From the IMG/VR virus record IMGVR_UViG_3300045988_183940: a DNA stretch of 64,000 nucleotides. One strand, written 5' to 3'. Under the pieces are notes generated by a model. The model saw nothing but the letters and a program-made list of their open reading frames with translations, made no database searches and was not told where the DNA came from. The DNA comes from a virus. The first letter of the stretch is position 1, and every line of letters begins with the position of its first letter. Shown here one piece after another: positions 486 through 23,467 of the stretch. Both the position numbers and the translations under genes were made by a program.

Positions 486-3245
486 GTGAATGTAAAAAAG
501 AGCATTAATAATATAAGGCTTGCTGTCCTAGTTATGATTTTGTCAATGTTTGTGGGAACTGGCGTAATATATGCCGACCCCCCACAGCAGCCTCAAAAGC
601 AGGAGCAGAACACAAATGCTAAAGTTTTAAAACCTGAAGAGCAGAAGGCTAAGGCAAAAGAAATATATACGGCATTGGAAAATATTAAAAACAAAGGGGA
701 CAAGGCAACAGAAGCTGATATAAAGGCGGCTAAGGAAAAAGGTGCAACTGACTCCCAGATTGACAATGCAAAGAAAGGAAATCTTCCAAAACAGGAAGAC
801 ATTGAAAAGACGGTTGCGGCTGGAGAAAGCGGAAAGGAATCAGCAAACCTTTTTGTAAATACTGTAAACCAGATTGAAACGGAGCTTTCAAAGTCAATAA
901 AGAAAGCAGTGACATCAATACTTGGAACTGTGAGCGTACTTCTTGTTGGAATAGCCACGCTTCAGGTGACACTTACAGTGCTTCCGCTCGTGTCACAGAA
1001 AGGTATAAGCCAGATTCCGCAAGGAATTTTTGCAAATGCACTTAAGTTTGGATTTGTTGCATGGCTTCTACAGGGGGACAACTGGTGGAACTTGACTCAG
1101 GACATAAAGACTTTCTTTATGCACGCAGGTATGAAATTTGGGGACGGAAAGTTTGCAAATGCTGACAAAGTCTCCACAGGGGACATCGCAAATTACATAA
1201 TTCTCGCACCGTTCAAGGTTATGGGATTTGTTACAGATGAGCAGATAAATCTGGTATGGAAAATGATGTTCATTTTAACGGGGCTTCTGCTTCTAATAGT
1301 ATGTATAAAAGTATTATGTGATTTCCTAGTGGCAGTAATAGAATATGACCTTTTAGGCGGACTTAGCGGAATATACATTATATTCCTGTTATGGGACAAG
1401 ACACAGAGCTTTGGAATGAAGGCGTTTAACCACATACTTGCTGGCGGACTTAAAATAATGCTTATAGTTGCATTTATTGGAATTACAGTTCAGGTTACTG
1501 AAGAGCAGGCGGGACTTCTTTCGGACGGACAGAAGCCAGCCTCAATATTCATATACTGTGGAATTGTTGCAATAATGAGCTACATGTGTTCAATAGCACC
1601 AGCACAGGCTTCGTCATTAATGACTGGTGGCGGTGGAGCTGCAACAGGTTCAGGATTTATCACTTCAATGGCTAAGCAGGCTGTGAGCGTTGTAACAACA
1701 ACTGCCGCTCTTGCTGTAGGTGGAGCTGGAATAATAGGTGCATTGAAAACAGCTGCTGGTGCTGGCGGTGGAGTAGGCGGATTTGTCAAGTCTCTAGGTA
1801 AGCAGGCAGGTAAGAAAGTTTTAAACAAGGGTAAGGACGTAATTGCCCCGTTTGGCGGAGCAAAGGACGCTGCCAAGGCGATGTTCTCAAAAGAAGGTGG
1901 CGGAGTTGTTGACAGGCTTCGTAATGCAAGAAACGCATACCGTAACAATAAAGGTGTGCTTGGTGCAAGACAGCGTAAGGCTTTAAGCAATGCCAAGAAG
2001 GAAAAACGTAAGGCTATTATTCAGGGAATCGCCTCAGTTGCAGAAAATGCAATAATGGTTGGCGGTGGACAACGGAGCATGGCTGAAGCAAGGGAAGCAA
2101 TAAGCAGAAACCTTTATAACGCAAGGCAGGGAAGTGCACGTTCCAAGGAAGTTCTTAACAGCGTCAAGGAAAGAATGGAAGCTCAAGGAATTGACCCTAC
2201 AGCTGGAATGGACAAGAAAGAGGAAGAGGATTACGCTAAGGCAATGGGAATGGAAATTTCTAAAGATTCTGACGATGTTCATGCAAACGACTTGACACAA
2301 GATGGAGACAGAACTTTCCAAGGTGGCGGAGTTGATGATATGAACGGAGTTAAGACAAATGTCACAGACAAATTCTCTGAAGTAGGAGAAGATGGAAAAG
2401 TAAATGCAGGTAAAAACGGAAATTGGAAAAATACGCAGCAGTATGTTGGAAATCAAGGTGCTGTCGCTTTTGTAAATGAAAAGACTGGAGAAGTTGCAAG
2501 ACAGGTTCTTGCTGGAGAAGATACATCTGGAAAGAAAGTCTTTACAGTACGTAATAGCAAGGGGCAGGAAGTACAAATGGTTAAAATTCAGAACTCAGCT
2601 GATGATACAAAAGGTGCAAAAGTAACAGCTTCGGGAAGAGTTATGGTAAGCAAGCAGGCAATGTCACATTCAGTAACTGCAAAGGTTGATAATTCATTTA
2701 ACACTCTTCGTAATATAGACGCTGTAACATCAATGCCTGAAATGCAGAATGTAAGTGTTGAAAATATACAAACTGCAACATTTAATATTCAGCAGGCTCA
2801 GGAAGTTTTGTCACAAGATTCTCAAAATCAGGCTGCTATGACACAGCTTTACGAAGCTACTCAGACGCTTGTTAAGGAAAGAAAAAACTTTACTGGAGAC
2901 CAGCAGCAGTTCAGAAGCGTTGTTAAAAATATTTCAAATGTTCAGACAGTGCAGACAGCAAACTATTCAAACATTGCTTCAAATTCAAGCGTTCCGTTTA
3001 CAGCTGAAGACAACAAGTCAATTGAAAGGTATACTGAAATTACAAGGGAACTTAATACAAACTCTGAAAACCTTTCAGACACTAAGAAAGAGCAGTTAAG
3101 GGAAGAGCTTGGAAAAATTGAAACCAAGTTTGAAACTAAGCACAATGTAAACCTTAAGAGCACTAAAGTTCGGAAGCAAATTGTAAAGGCTGCCAAGAAG
3201 GCTGGAAACATTAAAAAGAACATGAAGGACATAAAGAAAGTGTAG
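486..3245 (+). CDS. TrbL/VirB6-family type IV secretion inner-membrane protein with a long hydrophilic C-terminal extension
   Basis: GTG start 8 nt after AAGGAGA. Signal peptide, then about 6 TM helices, then a Gly-rich tract (TGGGGAATGSG...GAGGGVGGF) typical of TrbL/VirB6, then about 450 aa of hydrophilic tail. Confidence 0.55.
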   Translation: MNVKKSINNIRLAVLVMILSMFVGTGVIYADPPQQPQKQEQNTNAKVLKPEEQKAKAKEIYTALENIKNKGDKATEADIKAAKEKGATDSQIDNAKKGNLPKQEDIEKTVAAGESGKESANLFVNTVNQIETELSKSIKKAVTSILGTVSVLLVGIATLQVTLTVLPLVSQKGISQIPQGIFANALKFGFVAWLLQGDNWWNLTQDIKTFFMHAGMKFGDGKFANADKVSTGDIANYIILAPFKVMGFVTDEQINLVWKMMFILTGLLLLIVCIKVLCDFLVAVIEYDLLGGLSGIYIIFLLWDKTQSFGMKAFNHILAGGLKIMLIVAFIGITVQVTEEQAGLLSDGQKPASIFIYCGIVAIMSYMCSIAPAQASSLMTGGGGAATGSGFITSMAKQAVSVVTTTAALAVGGAGIIGALKTAAGAGGGVGGFVKSLGKQAGKKVLNKGKDVIAPFGGAKDAAKAMFSKEGGGVVDRLRNARNAYRNNKGVLGARQRKALSNAKKEKRKAIIQGIASVAENAIMVGGGQRSMAEAREAISRNLYNARQGSARSKEVLNSVKERMEAQGIDPTAGMDKKEEEDYAKAMGMEISKDSDDVHANDLTQDGDRTFQGGGVDDMNGVKTNVTDKFSEVGEDGKVNAGKNGNWKNTQQYVGNQGAVAFVNEKTGEVARQVLAGEDTSGKKVFTVRNSKGQEVQMVKIQNSADDTKGAKVTASGRVMVSKQAMSHSVTAKVDNSFNTLRNIDAVTSMPEMQNVSVENIQTATFNIQQAQEVLSQDSQNQAAMTQLYEATQTLVKERKNFTGDQQQFRSVVKNISNVQTVQTANYSNIASNSSVPFTAEDNKSIERYTEITRELNTNSENLSDTKKEQLREELGKIETKFETKHNVNLKSTKVRKQIVKAAKKAGNIKKNMKDIKKV

Positions 3246-4298: not shown

Positions 4299-5753
4299 AT
4301 GGGAACTAACAATATATTTGATAATATTGACATATCGGACATACTTGATGAAAGCATGTCAAGTAAAAAAGATGACTCAGAAAAAGAGACAGACAGCAGT
4401 TCTGGCTCAGATGATGACAGCCTTGATTCACTAAGCTTCAATGAAGAGGGTTCACAAGATGGCAATTACATTGATACCCAAGAGGAAAATCTTTTGAAGA
4501 AAATGGATGACGACAGCTTTAACAGCATTATGGAAGAAGTTGAGGGAATGCACACTGAACATAAAAAGCAGGCATTTGAAAAAGGCGATATAGACAGCCT
4601 GTCAATGGATGACATCGTAAACAGTTCCGTAGAGGACACAATAAAGATGGCAACATCGGAAGTAACCTTTGACAAGAGCGTTATTGCAAACCTTACTGAA
4701 GAGCAGCTTTTAAAGATTGACAAGAACGACAAGATTTTCAACTACCTTACCCCAGACCAGAAGGAGTTCATACTGGATGAAGAAGCAAAGGCTTTTACAA
4801 TGAAGTCATTTGGGCAGGACATCATTGCATATATGAACAAGAAGGGAGTAATTGAAATCTCTCTTGAGCAGGACGGATTTATATGGGTTGAGGAATTTGG
4901 ACAGCCTGAACGTATAAATACTGGAATAAAGCTCTCAAATACGGACTCGACAAAGATAATCAAACTTGTGTCAAGGTTCAATGGACATACAATAACAAGG
5001 GAAAATCCAAAAATAGATGGCGTTACACCTAATGGAATGCGTTTTTCAGCACTTATGTATGACTGCGTCCAGTACAGGAACACATTTTCAATACGTAAGC
5101 CAAGCGGAATTGTAATACCTCTGTCGCAATACATTGACAGGAACATAATGACTGCGAAGCAGGTTGACTTTATCGCAAAGCAGATAATGGACAAAAAGAA
5201 CATCCTTTTTTCAGGGGGGACATCATCAGGAAAGACTACGTCCATAAACTCATTCATGACAGTACTTAAAGATTCAGGAGACAAGATTATAAGTATTGAG
5301 GACACGCCTGAGCTAATGCTCTCAAGCAAGATTTGGACAAGGCTTATCTCAAACAGGTACATAAAGCCAATTGAGCTTTTGCAACAGTGTATGAGACTTT
5401 CCCCAGACAGGATGATGATAGGTGAAATTCGTACAGGGGAAGTGACGCTTGAGTACTTAAAAGCGATGAACTCAGGACATAGTGGTGGTATTACATCAAT
5501 CCACGCAAATACAGCATATTCTACAATACTTAAGCTTGAGCAGTACCTGTCAGAAGTTCTTAACGGGGACTATTGGCGACTTATCAGTACAGCAGTTGAC
5601 ATGATTATAAACGTTGGAATAAATCCTGTCACGCATGAACGTCCAATGGTTAAGGAGATAGCAGTTCTTAAAGGCTACGACAGAAAGAGCGGCGACTACA
5701 TCCTAGAGGACGCAATGACAGGAAAACGGATTGAAACATTTGCAATTCAGTAA
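4299..5753 (+). CDS. VirB11/TrbB/CpaF-family secretion ATPase with an acidic Asp/Ser/Glu-rich N-terminal extension
   Basis: Walker A FSGGTSSGKTTSIN, Asp box IEDTPEL, Walker B MMIGEIR, His box GHSGGITSIHAN. Confidence 0.85.
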   Translation: MGTNNIFDNIDISDILDESMSSKKDDSEKETDSSSGSDDDSLDSLSFNEEGSQDGNYIDTQEENLLKKMDDDSFNSIMEEVEGMHTEHKKQAFEKGDIDSLSMDDIVNSSVEDTIKMATSEVTFDKSVIANLTEEQLLKIDKNDKIFNYLTPDQKEFILDEEAKAFTMKSFGQDIIAYMNKKGVIEISLEQDGFIWVEEFGQPERINTGIKLSNTDSTKIIKLVSRFNGHTITRENPKIDGVTPNGMRFSALMYDCVQYRNTFSIRKPSGIVIPLSQYIDRNIMTAKQVDFIAKQIMDKKNILFSGGTSSGKTTSINSFMTVLKDSGDKIISIEDTPELMLSSKIWTRLISNRYIKPIELLQQCMRLSPDRMMIGEIRTGEVTLEYLKAMNSGHSGGITSIHANTAYSTILKLEQYLSEVLNGDYWRLISTAVDMIINVGINPVTHERPMVKEIAVLKGYDRKSGDYILEDAMTGKRIETFAIQ

Positions 5754-11826: not shown

Positions 11827-12492
11827 ATGGGAACTTATTATGCCTATCAACTTATTAACAATAAAAACGAACTGGAACTTATGCCACACACTATAAACAG
11901 AGGACTTCATTTAAGAAATCATGATTTTGGAAGAGCAAAGTTTCAGGAAGGATTTTATCACAGAAGCGATATGACACAGATTCTTTACAAGATAATGGAG
12001 ATGATTGGAACACCTGTAACAGTAAATACAGCAAATGACTATGACAAGGATGACAATAACTTTAAACATAAAATAAATATAAATCTTAATCCTTTTGTCA
12101 AGACTTCTTTTGATAAAGAGGAACTGTCAGAATTTGTAAGAAAAGAGCTTAAAAAGAAAAAATATATTAAAAATGGATATATTGTCTGTGATAATCGAAA
12201 GCAGTATATAGACATCTCACAATTTGACAATAACAATCTAGTTATATCTCCAATAGCTCTTCTGACAAGAGCAAATTCAGAAGCACAGGGCGGCGGAGAC
12301 TTTGGAGCGTCATCTCTTCTTGAATGGACAGATGAAAGCTGTACATATTTTGAATACAGAAAAAATTCCGACTTTGAAAAGGAACTTATAACTTACTGGA
12401 AAGACTGTGAAATATATTTTACAGAAGACATATCTAAATTAAATGGCTATACAGATATATCTAAACAAATATATTTGGAGCTTAATTTTTAA
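11827..12492 (+). CDS. hypothetical protein
   Basis: 221-aa ORF with the RBS AAGGAGAAGGAGA. Preceded by a promoter with a degenerate copy of the palindromic operator (TTGACAAAATTGTAAA). Confidence 0.5.
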   Translation: MGTYYAYQLINNKNELELMPHTINRGLHLRNHDFGRAKFQEGFYHRSDMTQILYKIMEMIGTPVTVNTANDYDKDDNNFKHKININLNPFVKTSFDKEELSEFVRKELKKKKYIKNGYIVCDNRKQYIDISQFDNNNLVISPIALLTRANSEAQGGGDFGASSLLEWTDESCTYFEYRKNSDFEKELITYWKDCEIYFTEDISKLNGYTDISKQIYLELNF

Positions 12493-12591
12493 AACTTAGC
12501 AGGAAATTAATTTTCCTGTCTTTTAATTTGCAATTGATTTATTTTAAGATATATGATATAATAATCATAAAATGAAAGGATGTGAAAAAAT

Positions 12592-12792
12592 ATGAAAAAA
12601 TTTATAATTGAAAAAGTCCCATTAATATTTTTTATTTCACTTCTTGCAGGAACTATTTCGCAATGGGCAGTGCAAACTGCTGGATTTAATATAAAAGGCT
12701 TATGGTTATTAGTATGTTTAGCAGTTTTTACACTTTCAGGATTTATCTGTTTTGGACTGGATTGTAAAGATGAAAACGATAAAAAGAAATAA
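12592..12792 (+). CDS. small membrane protein
   Basis: 66 aa with two TM helices. RBS GAAAGGA. Confidence 0.4.
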   Translation: MKKFIIEKVPLIFFISLLAGTISQWAVQTAGFNIKGLWLLVCLAVFTLSGFICFGLDCKDENDKKK

Positions 12793-12837
12793 AGATATTA
12801 AACCCTATATAATTAAAAAAAAAGGAAAGGATAAAAA

Positions 12838-13089
12838 ATGAAAAACAAAATTAAAAAAATATTCAATGTTTTAAATATTATTTATTTATTAATTCAAGCA
12901 ATTTTAGTTGTATCAAAAATCAACAACTATTTAAAAATTACTTGGATTGAAGCCTTTTTACCAACAATTGTAATTTTTACAGTATATTTGACTGTTGCTG
13001 TAATGGTTTTTGTTTTTATAAAAATTATTCAAAAAGTTTACGGCACATCAGATAAAGAAATGGATAAAAAGTTTTGGAATAAACTGTAA
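12838..13089 (+). CDS. small membrane protein
   Basis: 83 aa with two TM helices. RBS AAAGGAAAGGA. Confidence 0.4.
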   Translation: MKNKIKKIFNVLNIIYLLIQAILVVSKINNYLKITWIEAFLPTIVIFTVYLTVAVMVFVFIKIIQKVYGTSDKEMDKKFWNKL

Positions 13090-13121
13090 AACAAAACATA
13101 TAATAAGAAAGGAACAAACTT

Positions 13122-13484
13122 ATGGCAAATACAGAAAAAAAAGATAACGATAACTTAATCGTTGCACTTGTTATAATCGGTATACTATCAGTAATAGCTG
13201 TCCTAATTAACCAGACTAGAAATGAGATGAAAGATAAAAATAAAACTGAAAATAATAACACAAAATCTGATAAAAATAATAATGATAAAGAACAGTTTAT
13301 TGATACGTCACAGGATTATTTAACGGAAGGCTATAAAAAGAAAATAATTGATATATGTAAAAGCACAGCACCTTCAAAAACATATCAGGCTAACGGGAAA
13401 AATTTTGTCGTGATAGACAGGAAAGTCTATCGGGTTACAGATGAAGATTACGGACTTTTCACGGTAAACGAAAAATGCAGGTAG
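13122..13484 (+). CDS. family B paralog
   Basis: TM, then C-terminal CKSTAPSKTYQANGKNFVVIDRKVYRVTDEDYGLFTVNEKCR. Confidence 0.6.
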   Translation: MANTEKKDNDNLIVALVIIGILSVIAVLINQTRNEMKDKNKTENNNTKSDKNNNDKEQFIDTSQDYLTEGYKKKIIDICKSTAPSKTYQANGKNFVVIDRKVYRVTDEDYGLFTVNEKCR

Positions 13485-13490
13485 TTAGAA

Positions 13491-13754
13491 ATGAAAAATT
13501 ATAATATTAGAAAAATACAAGAACGTATATTAATTATATCAATGTTTTGTCTAGCGGCAGCGGGTATAATAAGTATATTAAAAGACCACAAATTGCAGGA
13601 AACTACATACAAGGCATATCATAAATGTAAAACAATGCCTCCTACAGAAATTTATCGGAAAAATGGTACAAATTATGTAATATTTGGAAGTGAACAGTAC
13701 AAAGTGACAGATGAATCATATATACGTTTTAAAGTAAATGAAAAATGTAAATAA
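13491..13754 (+). CDS. family B paralog
   Basis: TM, then C-terminal CKTMPPTEIYRKNGTNYVIFGSEQYKVTDESYIRFKVNEKCK. Confidence 0.6.
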   Translation: MKNYNIRKIQERILIISMFCLAAAGIISILKDHKLQETTYKAYHKCKTMPPTEIYRKNGTNYVIFGSEQYKVTDESYIRFKVNEKCK

Positions 13755-13782
13755 TAAAAGCTAAAAAGAAAGGAGAAATAAA

Positions 13783-14037
13783 ATGGAAGACGGACACCAA
13801 TATATGATAATTGCATTAATGCTTGGAATAGCATTGGCTTTTAGCGTAGCCATGGATAGAAAAAATGATGAAAAATTACAAGAAACAACATCTATTGCAT
13901 ACGAAAAATGTAAAACCATACCGCCTACTAAGACTTATCAGGCAGACAGGACAAACTATGTAATGTTTGGAAATGAGCAGTACAAAGTAACAAATGAAAA
14001 GTATGGATTGTTTATAGAAAATAAATTATGTAAATAG
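13783..14037 (+). CDS. family B paralog
   Basis: TM, then C-terminal CKTIPPTKTYQADRTNYVMFGNEQYKVTNEKYGLFIENKLCK. Confidence 0.6.
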   Translation: MEDGHQYMIIALMLGIALAFSVAMDRKNDEKLQETTSIAYEKCKTIPPTKTYQADRTNYVMFGNEQYKVTNEKYGLFIENKLCK

Positions 14038-14127
14038 AAAATCAAAAGGAGTTAAGTGATTACATTGCTATTATCTATAAACTTAATCTATGTCATATTT
14101 ATACTTAGATTTTGATACTATACCGTG

Positions 14128-14177
14128 TTATAGATGAAGACTATGGGCTGTTCACAGTAAATGAAAAATGCCGATAA
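14128..14177 (+). pseudogene. 3' fragment of a family B gene (encodes ...IDEDYGLFTVNEKCR*)
   Basis: Near-identical at the nt and aa level to the last 16 codons of 13122..13484. There is no upstream ORF or start codon. Confidence 0.5.
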
Positions 14178-14214
14178 TAAAAATAAAATTTTAGATTTGA
14201 AGGGAGAATAAATT

Positions 14215-14931
14215 ATGTTTTACGCATATATTATAAAAGGTGAAGAAGGAATAACAGACAGCTGGGAAAAATGTCAGAAAAAAGTAGCTGGAATATCAAA
14301 TGCGAAGTTTAAGAAATTTAAGACAGAAAAGGAAGCAAAGGAGTTCATAAACTCAAACGGAGAAATACAGAAGACATACGTGCTTCTTGACAATAATGCC
14401 ATATATTGCGACAGCGGAACTGGCGGAAACGGAGTAACAAAAATAAGAGTTGTAAACTCGAACGGAACTTCTCTTTTGAAAGGGTATGATTTTAAATCGC
14501 TTGCAAAACAGCTTGAAATACAGAACTCAAAGCTGACTGATGAGGGAACTCTTACAATAATTCACAAGACAAACAACTTCGGAGAACTCCTTGCGTTCTA
14601 TATAGCATTGGAAATAGCAGGAAAGAAACATAAAAAAGGTAAGAAATATAATAAGGTATACTGCGACTCAGAGCTTGTGCTTAACCACTGGAGCAAAGGA
14701 AATATTAAAAAGACCGAAGACAAAGTGACAGCAAACCTTTCAAGAATGGTAACTGAACTCAGGGCAGAATTTGAGAAAAAGACTGGAAGGAAAGTGTGCC
14801 AGATAAAAGGCGAGTTAAATCCAGCGGACTTAGGATTTCATAAGTCAAAATCAAATGTAGTTGCTATAACAGGGCACGTGAAAAATTGCATTTCACTTAA
14901 AAAATATATGAACAAGCTAAAAAAAGGATAA
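14215..14931 (+). CDS. RNase H1-like protein with an N-terminal hybrid-binding domain (HBD / Cauli_VI-like)
   Basis: N-terminal FYAYIIKGEEGITDSWEKCQKKVAGISNAKFKKFKTEKEAKEFI matches the RNase H1 HBD consensus. RNase H-fold motifs IYCDSGTGGNG (D), NFGELLAFYIALE (E), VYCDSELV (D) and NPAD (D) are present. Confidence 0.75.
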   Translation: MFYAYIIKGEEGITDSWEKCQKKVAGISNAKFKKFKTEKEAKEFINSNGEIQKTYVLLDNNAIYCDSGTGGNGVTKIRVVNSNGTSLLKGYDFKSLAKQLEIQNSKLTDEGTLTIIHKTNNFGELLAFYIALEIAGKKHKKGKKYNKVYCDSELVLNHWSKGNIKKTEDKVTANLSRMVTELRAEFEKKTGRKVCQIKGELNPADLGFHKSKSNVVAITGHVKNCISLKKYMNKLKKG

Positions 14932-14934
14932 ACC

Positions 14935-15429
14935 ATGAAAACAAGTACTGAATACACTAAAAACCTTAAAAATAAAATTATAACATCAGATATGCTGTAT
15001 GACAGTATTTTTTCACTGAACAAGAGAGCAAAGAATAACAGGGATATGAAAAACCAGTATAGTTGGAGCAGATATTACTGGAGCTATGTAACCAAGATGA
15101 ATGAATATTATAGACAGAAGGATTTTCTTATAAAAAAGTTTTTAAAGCCTAAACTTATACATAAACAAAAAACTGAAGGCTGGTACGGCGAAACAAAATA
15201 TTTATATTTTATATACTATGAAATGCCACAGGGCAGCTTTCACACACCTGTCAAGCAGGAAGACATTAAAAAGGATTACTCGCATTTAAAAATAGAAAAT
15301 ATACCTGACGACTTTTATACTCACGGAAAGGAGATTCAGGAACTTATGTCTGTACAGTTTGTAAATAAGTTAATCAGACTTGTTGAATCCGATGACTTTG
15401 AATATATAGAAATGGAAGTGAAAGAATGA
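14935..15429 (+). CDS. hypothetical protein
   Basis: 164-aa ORF lying between the two RNase H-like genes and overlapping the next start (ATGA). Confidence 0.5.
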   Translation: MKTSTEYTKNLKNKIITSDMLYDSIFSLNKRAKNNRDMKNQYSWSRYYWSYVTKMNEYYRQKDFLIKKFLKPKLIHKQKTEGWYGETKYLYFIYYEMPQGSFHTPVKQEDIKKDYSHLKIENIPDDFYTHGKEIQELMSVQFVNKLIRLVESDDFEYIEMEVKE

Positions 15430-16316
15430 AAAAATACTACGCATACATAATAAAGGAGACGGGAGAAAAAGGAATTTTTAATACTTGGAATGAGTGTAGA
15501 CAAAAGGTGGAAAACTATAAGTTTGCACTTTATAGAAAATTTGAGACCGAAGACGAAGCCAAAACTTTTCTTCAGAATCCAAACTTTAAACAGGACACAA
15601 GATTTTACTACGCATACATACAAAATTACAACGGAACGATAATTAAAGGATTTGTACAATCTTGGAATGAATGTCAGGACAGGATTCGGGAATGTGCTAA
15701 CACAAAATACAGGAAATGCGAGACTCTTGAACAGACTAATGAGTATCTTGAAAAAGACGGAAAAATAAATACAATTAAGTACTATATACATCTCCCTGAA
15801 AATTCATTGTTTTGTGACGGAAACATCAGAAAAGGAAAAACTTTTGTCAAGGTTGTAAACGAAAATAAGAAAGATGTAGTTGACAGAAAATTCAATATGG
15901 AATATATGAAACTTGCTAAAATAAAGGAAGTCTTTATTTCAGATGATAATTTGCTGACTCTACCCTATGAAAAGACAATAAACTTTGCAAAGCTGCTGGC
16001 TTTATATACATCCCTAGCAACGGCTCTTGAAAATAATCCTGAAATAACACTTATATATTGCGATTCTTTGGTTGTAATAGACGCTTGGAGCTTAGGAAAA
16101 GTAAACGTTGCTGATGTTGATGTACACAATCTTGCAAGCGAGACCGTTTATCTGCGGAAAATGTTTGAAGATAGAGGTGGAGCTGTGAAATGGATTAAAA
16201 ACTGGATAAACCCAGCTATTCTTGGAAACAAGACAGGACATTTTGCACGCACCGTATCACATAAGACAAAAATGTCAATCCCACTTGACGATTTTCTTAA
16301 AATGAAAATAGAATAA
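15426..16316 (+). CDS. tandem hybrid-binding-domain protein with a degenerate, probably inactive, RNase H-like domain
   Basis: Two HBD copies (YYAYIIKETGEKGIFNTWNECRQKV...; FYYAYIQNYNGTIIKGFVQSWNECQDRI...). In the RNase H-like region the expected catalytic E and the last D are replaced (NFAKLLA; NPAILG). Confidence 0.65.
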   Translation: MKKYYAYIIKETGEKGIFNTWNECRQKVENYKFALYRKFETEDEAKTFLQNPNFKQDTRFYYAYIQNYNGTIIKGFVQSWNECQDRIRECANTKYRKCETLEQTNEYLEKDGKINTIKYYIHLPENSLFCDGNIRKGKTFVKVVNENKKDVVDRKFNMEYMKLAKIKEVFISDDNLLTLPYEKTINFAKLLALYTSLATALENNPEITLIYCDSLVVIDAWSLGKVNVADVDVHNLASETVYLRKMFEDRGGAVKWIKNWINPAILGNKTGHFARTVSHKTKMSIPLDDFLKMKIE

Positions 16317-16444
16317 AAAAAAGATAAATTTATATGAAAAACACAATTACAGCATTATTATTTTTCCTGCTTATAACATTCAGGAAGCGTGTAAAAAATT
16401 TAACATAACACGAAAAAATTAAACAATGAAAAGGAGAAATTAAA

Positions 16445-16921
16445 ATGAATCTTGTATTATTAATTACAACATCTATTGCGTGGATATTATATGCTGTGGC
16501 ATGTATTATATCACTGCTGGTTATCTTATACTGTAAAAAGACTGATGAACTGTATAAAAAGTTTGAAAAATTTTTAATTTTAAGAGATGATGAGGATAAA
16601 ATGTTTCTGCTTTTTGGAAACACCATAGTATACTTGGCTACATTTGCCTTGATAGGAACTTTCACATATTCATACTTAATATATCACGATATATTAAATA
16701 AAGCTGCTGTATTGATGGCACTTGAGATTTCAATATGGTATATTATGATAGCTCTTGCTACAGTAATTATAAAAGGCTATTTTTTAAAAAATGAACCTGC
16801 TGATAATTCAAAATTAATAATTCAAATAAAAAACTGTATAGCATATTTAGCAATAGAAGGCATAATCTTTATATCTATGCAGTTATTAATACAAAAAGGA
16901 CTATTAACATTTAACATTTAG
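16445..16921 (+). CDS. polytopic membrane protein
   Basis: 158 aa with 4 to 5 hydrophobic helices. Confidence 0.5.
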   Translation: MNLVLLITTSIAWILYAVACIISLLVILYCKKTDELYKKFEKFLILRDDEDKMFLLFGNTIVYLATFALIGTFTYSYLIYHDILNKAAVLMALEISIWYIMIALATVIIKGYFLKNEPADNSKLIIQIKNCIAYLAIEGIIFISMQLLIQKGLLTFNI

Positions 16922-16942
16922 TTTAAGATAAAATAAAAAAAA

Positions 16943-16967
16943 AGATGTTATAAAAAACATCTTTTTT
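16943..16967. terminator. bidirectional terminator between convergent genes
   Basis: Stem AGATGTT/AACATCT flanked by an A-run and a T-run. Confidence 0.6.
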
Positions 16968-16991
16968 ATTTTACAAAACATATTTTACAAA

Positions 16992-17708
16992 CTACATATC
17001 CATTGCACGTTCCATTTGCTTTTGAGCATTATCAGAACCATCATTCTTTCCGTTAAATGTATCAAGCACACTTTTCATCACAGGGTTACTTGACGGAATA
17101 TACCTGTCAAATGAGCCGTTTTCATAAGCAACCTTTACGTCTTCATCTTCACGTCCCATGTTCCGTCCCTGAATTATGCACTTTTCATACTTTGAATTGT
17201 CGCTGTTCGCATTGATTTCCAAGTCAAACTTCATAGGATTAAATGACTTGACGTTTGAAAGAAGAGCGTCAATATTGTTTTCAAGAGCCTTTTTTTGAAC
17301 TCCGTCCATTGATATGTTAAGGTTTGTAACACGCTCGTCCTTAAGGCTCTCGCTAAGCCTCTCACAAAGGCTGTTAAGTCCAGCCCCTTTTGAAAAGTCC
17401 ATATTTGAAACATCATTTAACACCTTGTCCCCAAGTTCCTTTGTAATTTTATCGTTAGGCTCAAATACATTCACCATAACGGAAAATGACTGGGGAGAAT
17501 CTGACTGGACTGTGTCAAGATATATTGCACGGCTTCCAACTGTAACGTTTACATCCTGCATTTTAGGATTAATCTTGCTGTTCCGTATTGAAAATCCCAT
17601 ATCAGACTCAACATACTCAGTCTTGTCATTCTGAATATAATCTCCTACGGGAGCTCCCCTGAAAGTAACCTTTTCCATAACTTTTTTTGAAATATCCATA
17701 TATACCAC
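16992..17708 (-). CDS. hypothetical protein
   Basis: 238-aa ORF on the minus strand, last gene of a 4-gene minus-strand unit. Confidence 0.5.
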   Translation of the reverse strand: MVYMDISKKVMEKVTFRGAPVGDYIQNDKTEYVESDMGFSIRNSKINPKMQDVNVTVGSRAIYLDTVQSDSPQSFSVMVNVFEPNDKITKELGDKVLNDVSNMDFSKGAGLNSLCERLSESLKDERVTNLNISMDGVQKKALENNIDALLSNVKSFNPMKFDLEINANSDNSKYEKCIIQGRNMGREDEDVKVAYENGSFDRYIPSSNPVMKSVLDTFNGKNDGSDNAQKQMERAMDM

Positions 17709-17785
17709 ATCCTTTATATTTAATTTTAGATAATATAATTATATCACGTAGTGTAAAAATTATGCTAATAAAAAAGTCCGTATTT

Positions 17786-18271
17786 CTACGGACACATTTT
17801 CATATCATTTCTAATTTTTGCGACATCTATGTTACAGCTTTTGTAATTCACGATTGAATAAAGTGCACTTGGGATAAGATTGTCCTCAGTATAGTTTCCT
17901 ATTCCGTAAACATACTCAAAAATTATGTCAATTAATGTATCGCCATATTTTTTCCAGTCCATGTTTCCATCCGCATTTACAAAATCTTTTTCATTAACTG
18001 TAAATCCAGTTATCTCTTCCTGATATTTAGCAAACTGCTCAACTGACAATTTGTAGCAAGTGTTCCGCCCAATAAGGCTCTGAAGCTCATCCCTGCTGGA
18101 AATCCCCTTGTCCTGATTCCATAAAAATTCAGGAAGAGAAACAGGCTTGATGTCAGGAAGGGACAAAAGCTCATCCTTAACCTTTTCCCAGATTTCCCTA
18201 AAAATTAGATAAAATGACATTTCCACAAGTTTTACTGATTTATCTTTTTCCATAATAGCCTGTCCTTTCAT
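17786..18271 (-). CDS. hypothetical protein
   Basis: 161-aa ORF. A terminator hairpin GTCCGTA/TACGGAC overlaps its stop. Confidence 0.5.
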   Translation of the reverse strand: MKGQAIMEKDKSVKLVEMSFYLIFREIWEKVKDELLSLPDIKPVSLPEFLWNQDKGISSRDELQSLIGRNTCYKLSVEQFAKYQEEITGFTVNEKDFVNADGNMDWKKYGDTLIDIIFEYVYGIGNYTEDNLIPSALYSIVNYKSCNIDVAKIRNDMKMCP

Positions 18272-22305: not shown

Positions 22306-22797
22306 GTGCGGAATATGTATAACAAGCAATATGAAAACCCATATATGAAAGAGCATATAACGAACCTCAAGCCTATTGGGGAAAAGTTGAAAGACGAACG
22401 TTTTCTTAGGCGTATGTCCCTTGCACAGATGGGACAGCTTATGGGAGTCTCTGGAATACAGATAATGTACTACGAGGAAAAGGACAGGCATATAAGATAT
22501 GACATACTGAAAAAGTATGCCGAAAAGCTGGAAAAAAGCATTGATGAATTTCTTCCTTACTGCAAGATTGTTGAATATCCGAACAATGAAAAGACTGGAG
22601 AAATATTAAAATCTGCACGGGAAAAAAGCGGAAAGACAATGCAGAGTGTGTGCCTTGACCTTGGAATATCCTTTATGAGCCTTTACAGGTATGAAAATTC
22701 GGAAAACAGGTATATAAGAAGCGATATAATAGAAATGTTTGAGAAATATTACTCTCTTGAAAAAGGGGTGCTGCTTAATGCTTGTTTACCGAACTAA
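22306..22797 (+). CDS. tandem helix-turn-helix (XRE-type) transcriptional regulator
   Basis: Two HTH_XRE-like units (MSLAQMGQLMGVSGIQIMYYE and KTMQSVCLDLGISFMSLYRYE). Confidence 0.6.
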   Translation: MRNMYNKQYENPYMKEHITNLKPIGEKLKDERFLRRMSLAQMGQLMGVSGIQIMYYEEKDRHIRYDILKKYAEKLEKSIDEFLPYCKIVEYPNNEKTGEILKSAREKSGKTMQSVCLDLGISFMSLYRYENSENRYIRSDIIEMFEKYYSLEKGVLLNACLPN

Positions 22798-23467
22798 GAT
22801 TTACTATGATAAAATACCGAGCGTGAATAACGCTTGGCGTGCAACACAAAAACTTGGGCTAGTTCCGACAGAGGCTTTCAAGAAATTTAAGGCTGTTGTC
22901 AGCGAAAAGATATATAAGGAATATGCAGACAGGGACGTTATTGGAAGCAGGCTTCTTGTAATAATAAAGCTTGGGTTCACAAACTATGTAAAACGGGATG
23001 TGGACAACTATAACAAGGTTATCCTTGACACGTTCAAGGAGATAGTCTTTGCGGATGACTCTCAAGTTGACGTGCTTCTTAACACAAAGACTATGAATGT
23101 GGAAAAGGAGTACTTTGAAATTATAATTGATGATGACATATCCTCAATATTTAATTTACGGAATTATCTAAACAACGATGAGATTGAGGAGATAAAGGAA
23201 TCAAACAAGTACCAGAACAAGGCTGACAAGAAAAAGGACATTGTTACACCAACGTCAGCAAAAGATACTCTAGGTAAAAAAATAAAAATTTTAAGGGACT
23301 CAAAGAACTGGACTTTAAAACATCTGGCTAAAAAGCTGGAGATAGAAGAAAATGTATTAATCCATTTTGAGACGGATATAAGAAAGCCGACCAAGAAAAT
23401 GGTAAAGAAAATAGAAACGCTTTTTGGACTTAGCGAAGGCTTTCTTGAAGACATGATAAAAAGATAG
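22778..23467 (+). CDS. RusA-like Holliday-junction resolvase domain fused to a C-terminal XRE-type HTH
   Basis: N-terminal ...PSVNNAWR...DVDNYNKVILDTFKEIVFADDSQV matches the RusA DxDN/DD signature. C-terminal LKHLAKKLEIEENVLIHFE is an HTH. Start taken at the ATG (MLVYRTK) with an upstream RBS. Confidence 0.55.
   Translation: MLVYRTKIYYDKIPSVNNAWRATQKLGLVPTEAFKKFKAVVSEKIYKEYADRDVIGSRLLVIIKLGFTNYVKRDVDNYNKVILDTFKEIVFADDSQVDVLLNTKTMNVEKEYFEIIIDDDISSIFNLRNYLNNDEIEEIKESNKYQNKADKKKDIVTPTSAKDTLGKKIKILRDSKNWTLKHLAKKLEIEENVLIHFETDIRKPTKKMVKKIETLFGLSEGFLEDMIKR

Follow-up and report, generated by a model that had tools for sequence, protein, structure and literature searches.

Why would a single gene string encode both a ribonuclease (RNase) H1 with a complete catalytic centre and a paralogue in which half of that centre has been replaced? 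The question arises from a 64,000-nucleotide stretch of DNA (IMG/VR virus record IMGVR_UViG_3300045988_183940; hereafter the window), in which positions 14215–16316 of the plus strand are packed with three same-strand open reading frames (ORFs), g1, g2 and g3, located as a preliminary description of this locus had given them. That description read g1 as an active-looking RNase H1 and g3 as its hybrid-binding, non-cleaving partner. The structural half of this interpretation has held: g1 (14215–14931; 238 amino acids, aa) is by sequence an RNase H1 of the Bacillus halodurans type, with one hybrid-binding domain (HBD) and all four acids of the catalytic Asp-Glu-Asp-Asp (DEDD) set, and g3 (15426–16316; 296 aa) is a two-HBD paralogue whose predicted RNase H fold has neither the Glu nor the last Asp. 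For the functional half, our preferred if tentative reading is that g3 is a non-cleaving hybrid binder, co-expressed with a predicted active RNase H1, that would shield or select RNA:DNA hybrids of the element carrying both genes.

The catalytic columns of g3, aligned with the family and checked at the codon level, read D131/K189/D213/I265 (DKDI), against D66/E124/D151/D205 in g1. D131 (15816–15818) and D213 (16062–16064) are kept, the Glu is replaced by K189 (15990–15992, AAG) and the last Asp by I265 (16218–16220, ATT), all on the plus strand and just as had been proposed; g3 does not keep a full DEDD set. Both substitutions lie in ungapped, well-anchored alignment (TNNFGELLA in g1 versus TINFAKLLA in g3, and NPADLGFHK versus NPAILGNKT), and I265 is not a sequencing slip, because ATT is two nucleotide changes away from an Asp codon. 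Further family-conserved residues altered in g3 group near the active site: N133-I134-R135 in place of the GTG loop that follows the first Asp, N185I, G188A, G259N, F268N and H269K. An auxiliary acidic position, E200 in g1 and Asp in many family members, is Trp260 in g3. The GTG loop by the first Asp lines the RNA strand in the canonical enzyme. Residues of the fold core that are invariant in the family are kept in g3 (T184, N186, F187, L190, S214, W221, S222, N262-P263-A264, L266 and G267). The DEDD set of B. halodurans RNase H1 is D71/E109/D132/D192; D71, E109 and D132 bind metal B, D71, E188 and D192 bind metal A, and the enzyme loses its activity when DEDD residues are substituted (PMC12992507). 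Since equivalents of E109 (metal B) and D192 (metal A) are absent from g3, it loses one ligand at each metal site. Judged by this established enzymology, g3 is most likely non-cleaving, and because it retains only two of the four carboxylates we file it as an RNase H1-derived pseudo-enzyme and not as an RNase H.

The RNase H fold is a five-stranded mixed sheet flanked by helices. An AlphaFold2 model of the 296-aa protein, built with the family alignment, was confident (predicted local distance difference test score, pLDDT, 87.2) and contains this fold; in it, two beta-beta-alpha-beta-alpha HBDs are followed by a flexible linker, the RNase H domain and, at the C-terminus, a small hairpin and helix. 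When the model was compared with the PDB using Foldseek, B. halodurans RNase H1 came first (6dmn and 9yjl; expectation value, E, 3–4e-4; template-modelling score 0.61–0.66, target-normalised), and all top matches were type-1 RNases H at a probability of 1.0 (B. halodurans, Sulfolobus tokodaii, Halobacterium and human, with retroviral enzymes also following). On this model, g3 has a type-1 RNase H fold. Its elements include helices at residues 185–202 and 231–249, a short helix at 215–219 and strands at 209–212 and 253–256; as in the B. halodurans enzyme, there is no basic protrusion between helices B and D.

The N-terminal part of g3 was likewise as first described. Pfam family PF01693 (RNase H1 N-terminal domain, the HBD) matched two stretches of g3 (E 5.9e-15) and one of g1 (E 1.1e-10), and phmmer aligned the HBDs of both proteins with the yeast (1qhk) and human (3bsu) RNase H1 HBD structures, which confirms the single HBD of g1 and the tandem HBDs of g3. 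HBD1 of g3 spans residues 3–50 (15432–15575, plus strand, as for all features of the three genes) and HBD2 residues 60–109 (15603–15752); the RNase H-like domain follows at residues 119–270 (15780–16235), and a C-terminal extension, modelled as a small beta hairpin and helix (pLDDT ~68–82), occupies residues 271–296 (16236–16313). The Trp and basic pair used for hybrid binding are present in all three HBDs: W17 and K33-K34 in g1, which align to human W43 and K59-K60; W21 and R37-K38 (within Y36-R37-K38) in HBD1 of g3; and W80 and R96-K97 (within Y95-R96-K97) in HBD2, which is the more diverged of the two (family Phe to C98, Ala to T104). In the human HBD, W43A and KK59/60AA mutations abolish hybrid binding (PMC10639055). 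Conservation of these residues suggests that g3 still binds RNA:DNA hybrids or double-stranded RNA (dsRNA). The two proteins align by BLASTP at 31% identity over 243 aa (E 2e-27), a match that covers HBD2 and the whole C-terminal domain of g3 and by which they are paralogues.

The HBD of g1 occupies residues 1–47 (14215–14355) and its catalytic domain residues 55–210 (14377–14844), followed by an extension of ~28 aa past the usual end of the family (...NPADLGFHK). All four DEDD acids noted at the outset are retained: D66 (14410–14412), E124 (14584–14586), D151 (14665–14667) and D205 (14827–14829) were confirmed by family alignment and codon check and fall in family-invariant columns. In a comparison with the Pfam RNase_H family (PF00075), which had been suggested as a check on the g3 substitutions, g1 scored 17.9 bits, under the cut-off of 25.8, and g3 gave no match, and it was the alignments within the family that confirmed the substitutions. 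NCBIfam RNase H equivalogs likewise gave HBD-only matches or scores far under their cut-offs. The RNase H domain of g1 is thus recognised via its own family and the fold of its paralogue and not via Pfam, and its fold is predicted from the 31% identity to g3 and from a family profile match to 1zbl/2g8h. In the HMMER alignment, E124 and D151 of g1 align with the GTNNMGE and SDS motifs of the B. halodurans enzyme, which places them on the motifs bearing E109 and D132. By the same enzymology that marks g3 as inactive, g1 is predicted to be active.

How exceptional is g3 within its family? Homologues of g1 number more than 300; they are ~200 aa long, 40–49% identical over 88% of the length of g1, and carry the source names "ribonuclease H family protein" or "viroplasmin family protein". 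Invariant motifs of the family are YFDaGTGxG, TNNFGEL, GDSxLVIxYWSKG and the C-terminal NPADLGFHK, and the profile built from its catalytic part picks up B. halodurans RNase H1 structures over the TNNxGE...DS stretch (E 3e-3). In a hidden Markov model census of 247 family domains, 236 were DEDD, 2 were DKDI (g3 and P0001, its 97% identical twin) and 9 were gapped by truncated local alignments. A word-indexed homologue search with g3 returned P0001 as the sole match. When 1.84 billion representative proteins were searched exhaustively with HMMER for the g3 catalytic domain (42 matches at E <= 1e-3), no degenerate relatives were found; the nearest relatives were P0149 (39% identical) and P0150 (31%), and all aligned matches keep the Glu and the Asp. 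Identity to family members is 24–36% for g3 and 41–52% for g1, and this far greater distance of g3 from the family consensus argues for accelerated divergence.

The double HBD is a different matter. We rejected it as an unusual feature, since three members with complete catalytic motifs (P0010, P0014 and P0015) also have two HBDs, P0014 among ordinary chromosomal genes. The C-terminal extension is common to g1, g3 and P0150 and missing from the bulk of the family. A scan of GTDB species genomes with the family alignment found 411 loci, mostly chromosomal and none close, chiefly in Patescibacteria, Acidobacteriota, Fusobacteria and Myxococcota with some in DPANN archaea; the same genomes gave no match to g3. 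The family is essentially absent from catalogued plasmids, the single match being a 2.1-Mb Fusobacterium replicon, and its sole form in phages is a gene for the catalytic domain alone, present in four Fusobacterium phage records. The window holds no family copies beyond g1 and g3. In one further member, P0176 (1123 aa), a C-terminal RNase H domain of the same family (~1019–1117, NPAD kept) is fused to an N-terminal region of ~1000 aa.

Is g3 a maintained gene or a relic? A random frame of 296 codons would stay open in this 67% A+T region with a chance of ~1e-11, and an intact, well-folding ORF at no more than 39% identity to any relative (the P0001 twin aside) argues for long maintenance. DKDI is present in all three g3 sequence variants (the window, L001 and L102). 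Pairwise ratios of nonsynonymous to synonymous substitution (dN/dS), which rest on small counts of 18–24 substitutions per pair, were 0.45, 0.19 and 0.40 for g3, 0.18 for g1 and 0.09–0.22 for g2. These values are signs of weak purifying selection on g3, a constraint weaker than that on g1 but not absent. In L102, a 2.3-kb Logan contig, similarity to the window begins at window position 14447 (from a comparison of L102:1-270 with window 14150–14520); its g1 is a 151-aa ORF without the HBD and the first catalytic Asp, and its g2 and g3 are intact, g3 with DKDI. Either a genuine rearrangement or a chimeric assembly would account for this truncation.

The layout of the locus bears on whether g1 and g3 act together. 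Only 3 nucleotides separate g1 from g2, and the g2 stop overlaps the g3 start by 4 nucleotides (ATGA). Within the 177-nucleotide gap 5' of g1 lie a candidate sigma-70-like promoter (TTCACA-16-GATAAT, 14151–14178, plus strand), identified by consensus match only, and a GGGAG Shine-Dalgarno motif (~14202–14206, plus strand); no intrinsic terminators or terminator-like hairpins were found within or 3' of the g1-g2-g3 string. Spacing of this kind fits co-transcription and translational coupling of the three genes. The operon originally proposed is therefore reasonable by spacing and overlap, but g2 moves without RNase H genes in other elements.

That middle gene, g2 (14935–15429, plus strand), encodes a 164-aa orphan protein of mobile elements. 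Its model is confident (pLDDT 89; a helical hairpin and a beta sheet), with no informative structural neighbour. A protein identical to g2 is encoded on a 206-kb contig. Homologues at 58–76% identity (L006–L013) are widespread on 90–290-kb metagenomic contigs with a MobA/MobL relaxase, DnaB and DnaX; there they adjoin genes for a Dam-like methyltransferase, a SNF2 helicase or an RnlB antitoxin, whereas no HBD or RNase H gene is ever their neighbour. This neighbourhood suggests an establishment or anti-defence setting. In one group, the g2 homologue follows the Dam-like methyltransferase and the SNF2 helicase and faces the RnlB-antitoxin gene. A near-identical g1-g2-g3 trio occurs on several human-associated metagenome contigs; the more distant elements examined have no conserved g1-g2-g3 synteny. 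Since g2 and RNase H relatives occur separately on unrelated elements, the trio is a lineage-specific assembly of independently mobile cargo genes.

What carries this cargo? The window encodes conjugation proteins, namely VirB6/TrbL (486–3245), a TrbB/VirB11-type ATPase (4299–5753) that is at most 38% identical to anything in PLSDB, and a soluble lytic transglycosylase (SLT). This gene content assigns the window to an uncultured conjugative element, and we rejected a phage origin on account of these conjugation genes. In megablast searches of phage and plasmid collections, positions 12000–18000 had no close DNA match. Low G+C content, the TrbB-type ATPase and the Fusobacterium phage and chromosome matches are only hints of a diderm, Fusobacterium-like host. 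P0149 (L017:6059-10116), the closest relative of the g3 catalytic domain with a complete DEDD set, adjoins genes for a VirB11-like ATPase and a T4 coupling protein, on what is a second, unrelated conjugative element with this RNase H family beside transfer genes; P0150 sits in a ParA- and helix-turn-helix (HTH)-rich element. The closest g1 homologues (~46–49% identical, 203 aa; L098:6001-7065, on a 170-kb contig) are followed immediately downstream by a Macro-domain (ADP-ribose-binding/hydrolase) gene, with a STIV_B116-like gene nearby. The elements carrying P0149, P0150 and these g1 homologues share nothing else with the window.

Other genes of the window include a flotillin, a RusA-HTH fusion, a DinG-like helicase, a TROVE protein with tRNA-like genes, RtcB and Bro-N. 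The fusion is one ORF (22739–23467, plus strand) joining a RusA Holliday-junction resolvase (E 7e-10) to a C-terminal HTH_3 domain (E 2e-7). At 31485–34907 (plus strand), two tRNA-like genes (31485–31604, oversized at 120 nucleotides, and 31613–31688, called "tRNA-???" by ARAGORN and with an odd anticodon loop) precede a TROVE/Ro-like protein (31786–33168; DUF2828 and DUF7788; phrog_850 "RNA-binding protein", E 4e-47), a 185-aa ORF (33134–33691) and an RtcB RNA ligase (33759–34907, E 3e-68). The arrangement looks like an Rsr/Y-RNA-like and RtcB RNA-repair module on a conjugative element. Just upstream of the trio (13122–14176, plus strand) are three tandem paralogous ORFs of 120, 87 and 84 aa, each with an N-terminal hydrophobic segment and the C-terminal motif ...Y.V.DE.Y..F.VNEKC[KR]; a fourth, truncated copy of that C-terminus (RVIDEDYGLFTVNEKCR*) lies at ~14125–14176, just 5' of g1. 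In the close relatives L001–L004, this stretch holds a single 126-aa gene. Neither g1, g2 and g3 nor seven neighbouring ORFs matched any PADLOC-DB profile at E <= 0.01.

We synthesize these observations as follows. An old paralogue of g1 would have turned into a pseudo-nuclease and persisted as cargo on an uncultured conjugative element. It has kept the RNase H fold, and each of its two HBDs still has the Trp and the basic pair on which binding to RNA:DNA hybrids depends, while Lys for the metal-B Glu, Ile for the metal-A Asp and remodelled active-site loops would make two-metal hydrolysis impossible. Translated off the same tight gene string as g1, g3 may stably bind RNA:DNA hybrids (or dsRNA) without cleaving them, and may in this way limit or direct the action of RNase H, that of g1 or of the host, on hybrids relevant to the element, for example R-loops and the primers of replication or of the complementary strand. 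We regard this protective or selective role as plausible, though short of probable. A more specific form is doubtful: here g3 would be a natural "dead RNase H1", a two-HBD clamp that keeps specific hybrids (possibly those of origin or incoming-single-strand priming) from RNase H or that masks or mimics hybrids read by host immunity, and g1 and g3 would form an antagonistic, writer/eraser-like pair setting hybrid lifetime. Several observations weigh against a hybrid-shielding g3. Only a single narrow lineage, made up of near-identical metagenomic contigs, has the g1-g3 pair, so that functional coupling of the two has no comparative support; the L102 truncation, if real, would speak against an obligate partnership and would uncouple g3 from g1. 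With the GTG loop changed, the catalytic domain may no longer hold a hybrid in the usual way, and HBD2 is degenerate at two family-conserved positions. In the same pair of sequences, dN/dS is 0.45 for g3 against 0.18 for g1, on 20 substitutions only, which suggests that selection on g3 is relaxed.

Other explanations start from the same facts. Rather than competing with g1, g3 could be its non-catalytic subunit or targeting factor, perhaps bridged by g2, with the extra HBDs raising affinity or processivity or directing g1, much as an inactive structural subunit is paired with an active one. Co-directional genes whose layout implies translational coupling, the retained fold core of g3, and a C-terminal extension that is shared by g1, g3 and P0150, missing from most of the family and conceivably an interaction module would all suit such a complex, but g2 is found elsewhere without an RNase H neighbour and L102 seems to have a truncated g1 beside kept g2 and g3; we consider a complex unlikely. 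It is improbable that g3, alone or with g1 and g2, serves anti-defence or establishment, as a decoy or shield on hybrids or dsRNA made or sensed by host immunity or by sequestering a host factor. Such a role would suit a mobile element rich in small orphan genes, and could be read from the Dam-like methyltransferase, SNF2 helicase and RnlB antitoxin beside g2 homologues elsewhere, the Macro-domain gene adjoining the nearest g1 homologue, and the TROVE and RtcB RNA-repair module in the same window. All of this is guilt by association, however; PADLOC returned no matches, and a literature search on plasmid leading regions and anti-defence turned up no paper naming ribonuclease H.

Two explanations deny g3 the role of a non-cleaving binder altogether. 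Were it a decaying, functionless duplicate tolerated within an expressed gene string, its restriction to one narrow lineage, a dN/dS above those of g1 and g2, and the loss of many family-conserved residues would follow readily. Against decay stand the intact 296-codon ORF in A+T-rich DNA (chance ~1e-11) despite only 31–39% identity to any relative, the confident predicted fold (pLDDT 87) with conserved core residues, a dN/dS below 1 in three of three pairwise comparisons and a DKDI identical in all variants, and we regard decay as very improbable. Barely credible is a g3 that remains a nuclease with a non-canonical site, for instance a single metal on D131/D213 with Lys189 on the phosphate, possibly acting on another substrate: two of four carboxylates (D131 and D213) and the neighbouring Ser214 are kept, but each metal site has lost a ligand, DEDD substitutions inactivate type-1 RNases H (PMC12992507), and the auxiliary acidic position (E200 in g1) is Trp260.

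Comparison with characterised proteins places g1 and g3 more firmly. Like B. halodurans RNase H1 (1ZBI, 6DMN and 9YJL), they combine an N-terminal HBD with a protrusion-less catalytic domain in which the last catalytic Asp position lies a few residues from the C-terminus; no structure matches the g3 model better than that enzyme, which also gives the family profile its best sequence match in the PDB. Equivalents of its D71/E109/D132/D192 are kept in g1. Sequence identity to it is, however, only ~15–18%, g1 and g3 carry a 26–28-aa C-terminal extension, and g3 has a second HBD and no equivalents of E109 and D192. Its sequence features add g1 as a new member to the known bacterial HBD-RNase HI class that this enzyme typifies, a class with documented active examples and, in one survey, a single copy per prokaryotic genome (PMC1950709). 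All invariant motifs of g1 are shared by the viroplasmin family/ribonuclease H family group (e.g., P0021, P0028 and P0116; ~200 aa), which consists mostly of chromosomal single-copy genes from Patescibacteria, Acidobacteriota, Fusobacteria and others, in contrast to the g1 and g3 pair on a conjugative element. Some members of that group have a double HBD like g3, but a broken DEDD set is seen only in g3 and its 97% identical twin.

Dead RNase H1 and tandem HBD arrays are standard engineered R-loop traps. Among natural proteins, eukaryotic RNases H1 with duplicated HBDs (Saccharomyces cerevisiae Rnh1, and the Drosophila enzyme with its second HBD; PMC7657459) resemble g3 in placing tandem HBDs before a type-1 RNase H domain; unlike g3, which is expected to be inactive, they are catalytically active. 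Parallels in design are the engineered dRNH1 (PMC8266564) and the tandem-HBD sensor RHINO (PMC10639055), which bind hybrids stably and specifically without cleaving them. On paper g3 shares this design, two HBDs with an inactivated catalytic domain, but dRNH1 and RHINO are laboratory constructs with a single point mutation, whereas g3 is natural, strongly diverged and a predicted binder. B. subtilis YpdQ is, like g3, a bacterial type-1 RNase H homologue, with no detectable RNase H activity (discussed by Kochiwa et al. 2007, PMC1950709); according to that paper its group has no HBD, and YpdQ, unlike g3, is chromosomal and not paired with an active HBD-RNase H. Searches of an open-access library turned up no account of a plasmid on which a natural, HBD-bearing dead RNase H accompanies an active one.

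The significance of g3 is limited by its confinement to one narrow uncultured lineage and by an activity that is only predicted. Within those bounds, g1 and g3 would rank as a rare instance of a prokaryotic replicon with two HBD-RNase H genes, compared with the single copy per genome reported (PMC1950709), and g3 would supply a compact bacterial hybrid-binding protein. If the proposed role is true, a natural dead-RNase-H1 design beside an active RNase H1 would show that protection of hybrids, and not just their removal, can be selected.

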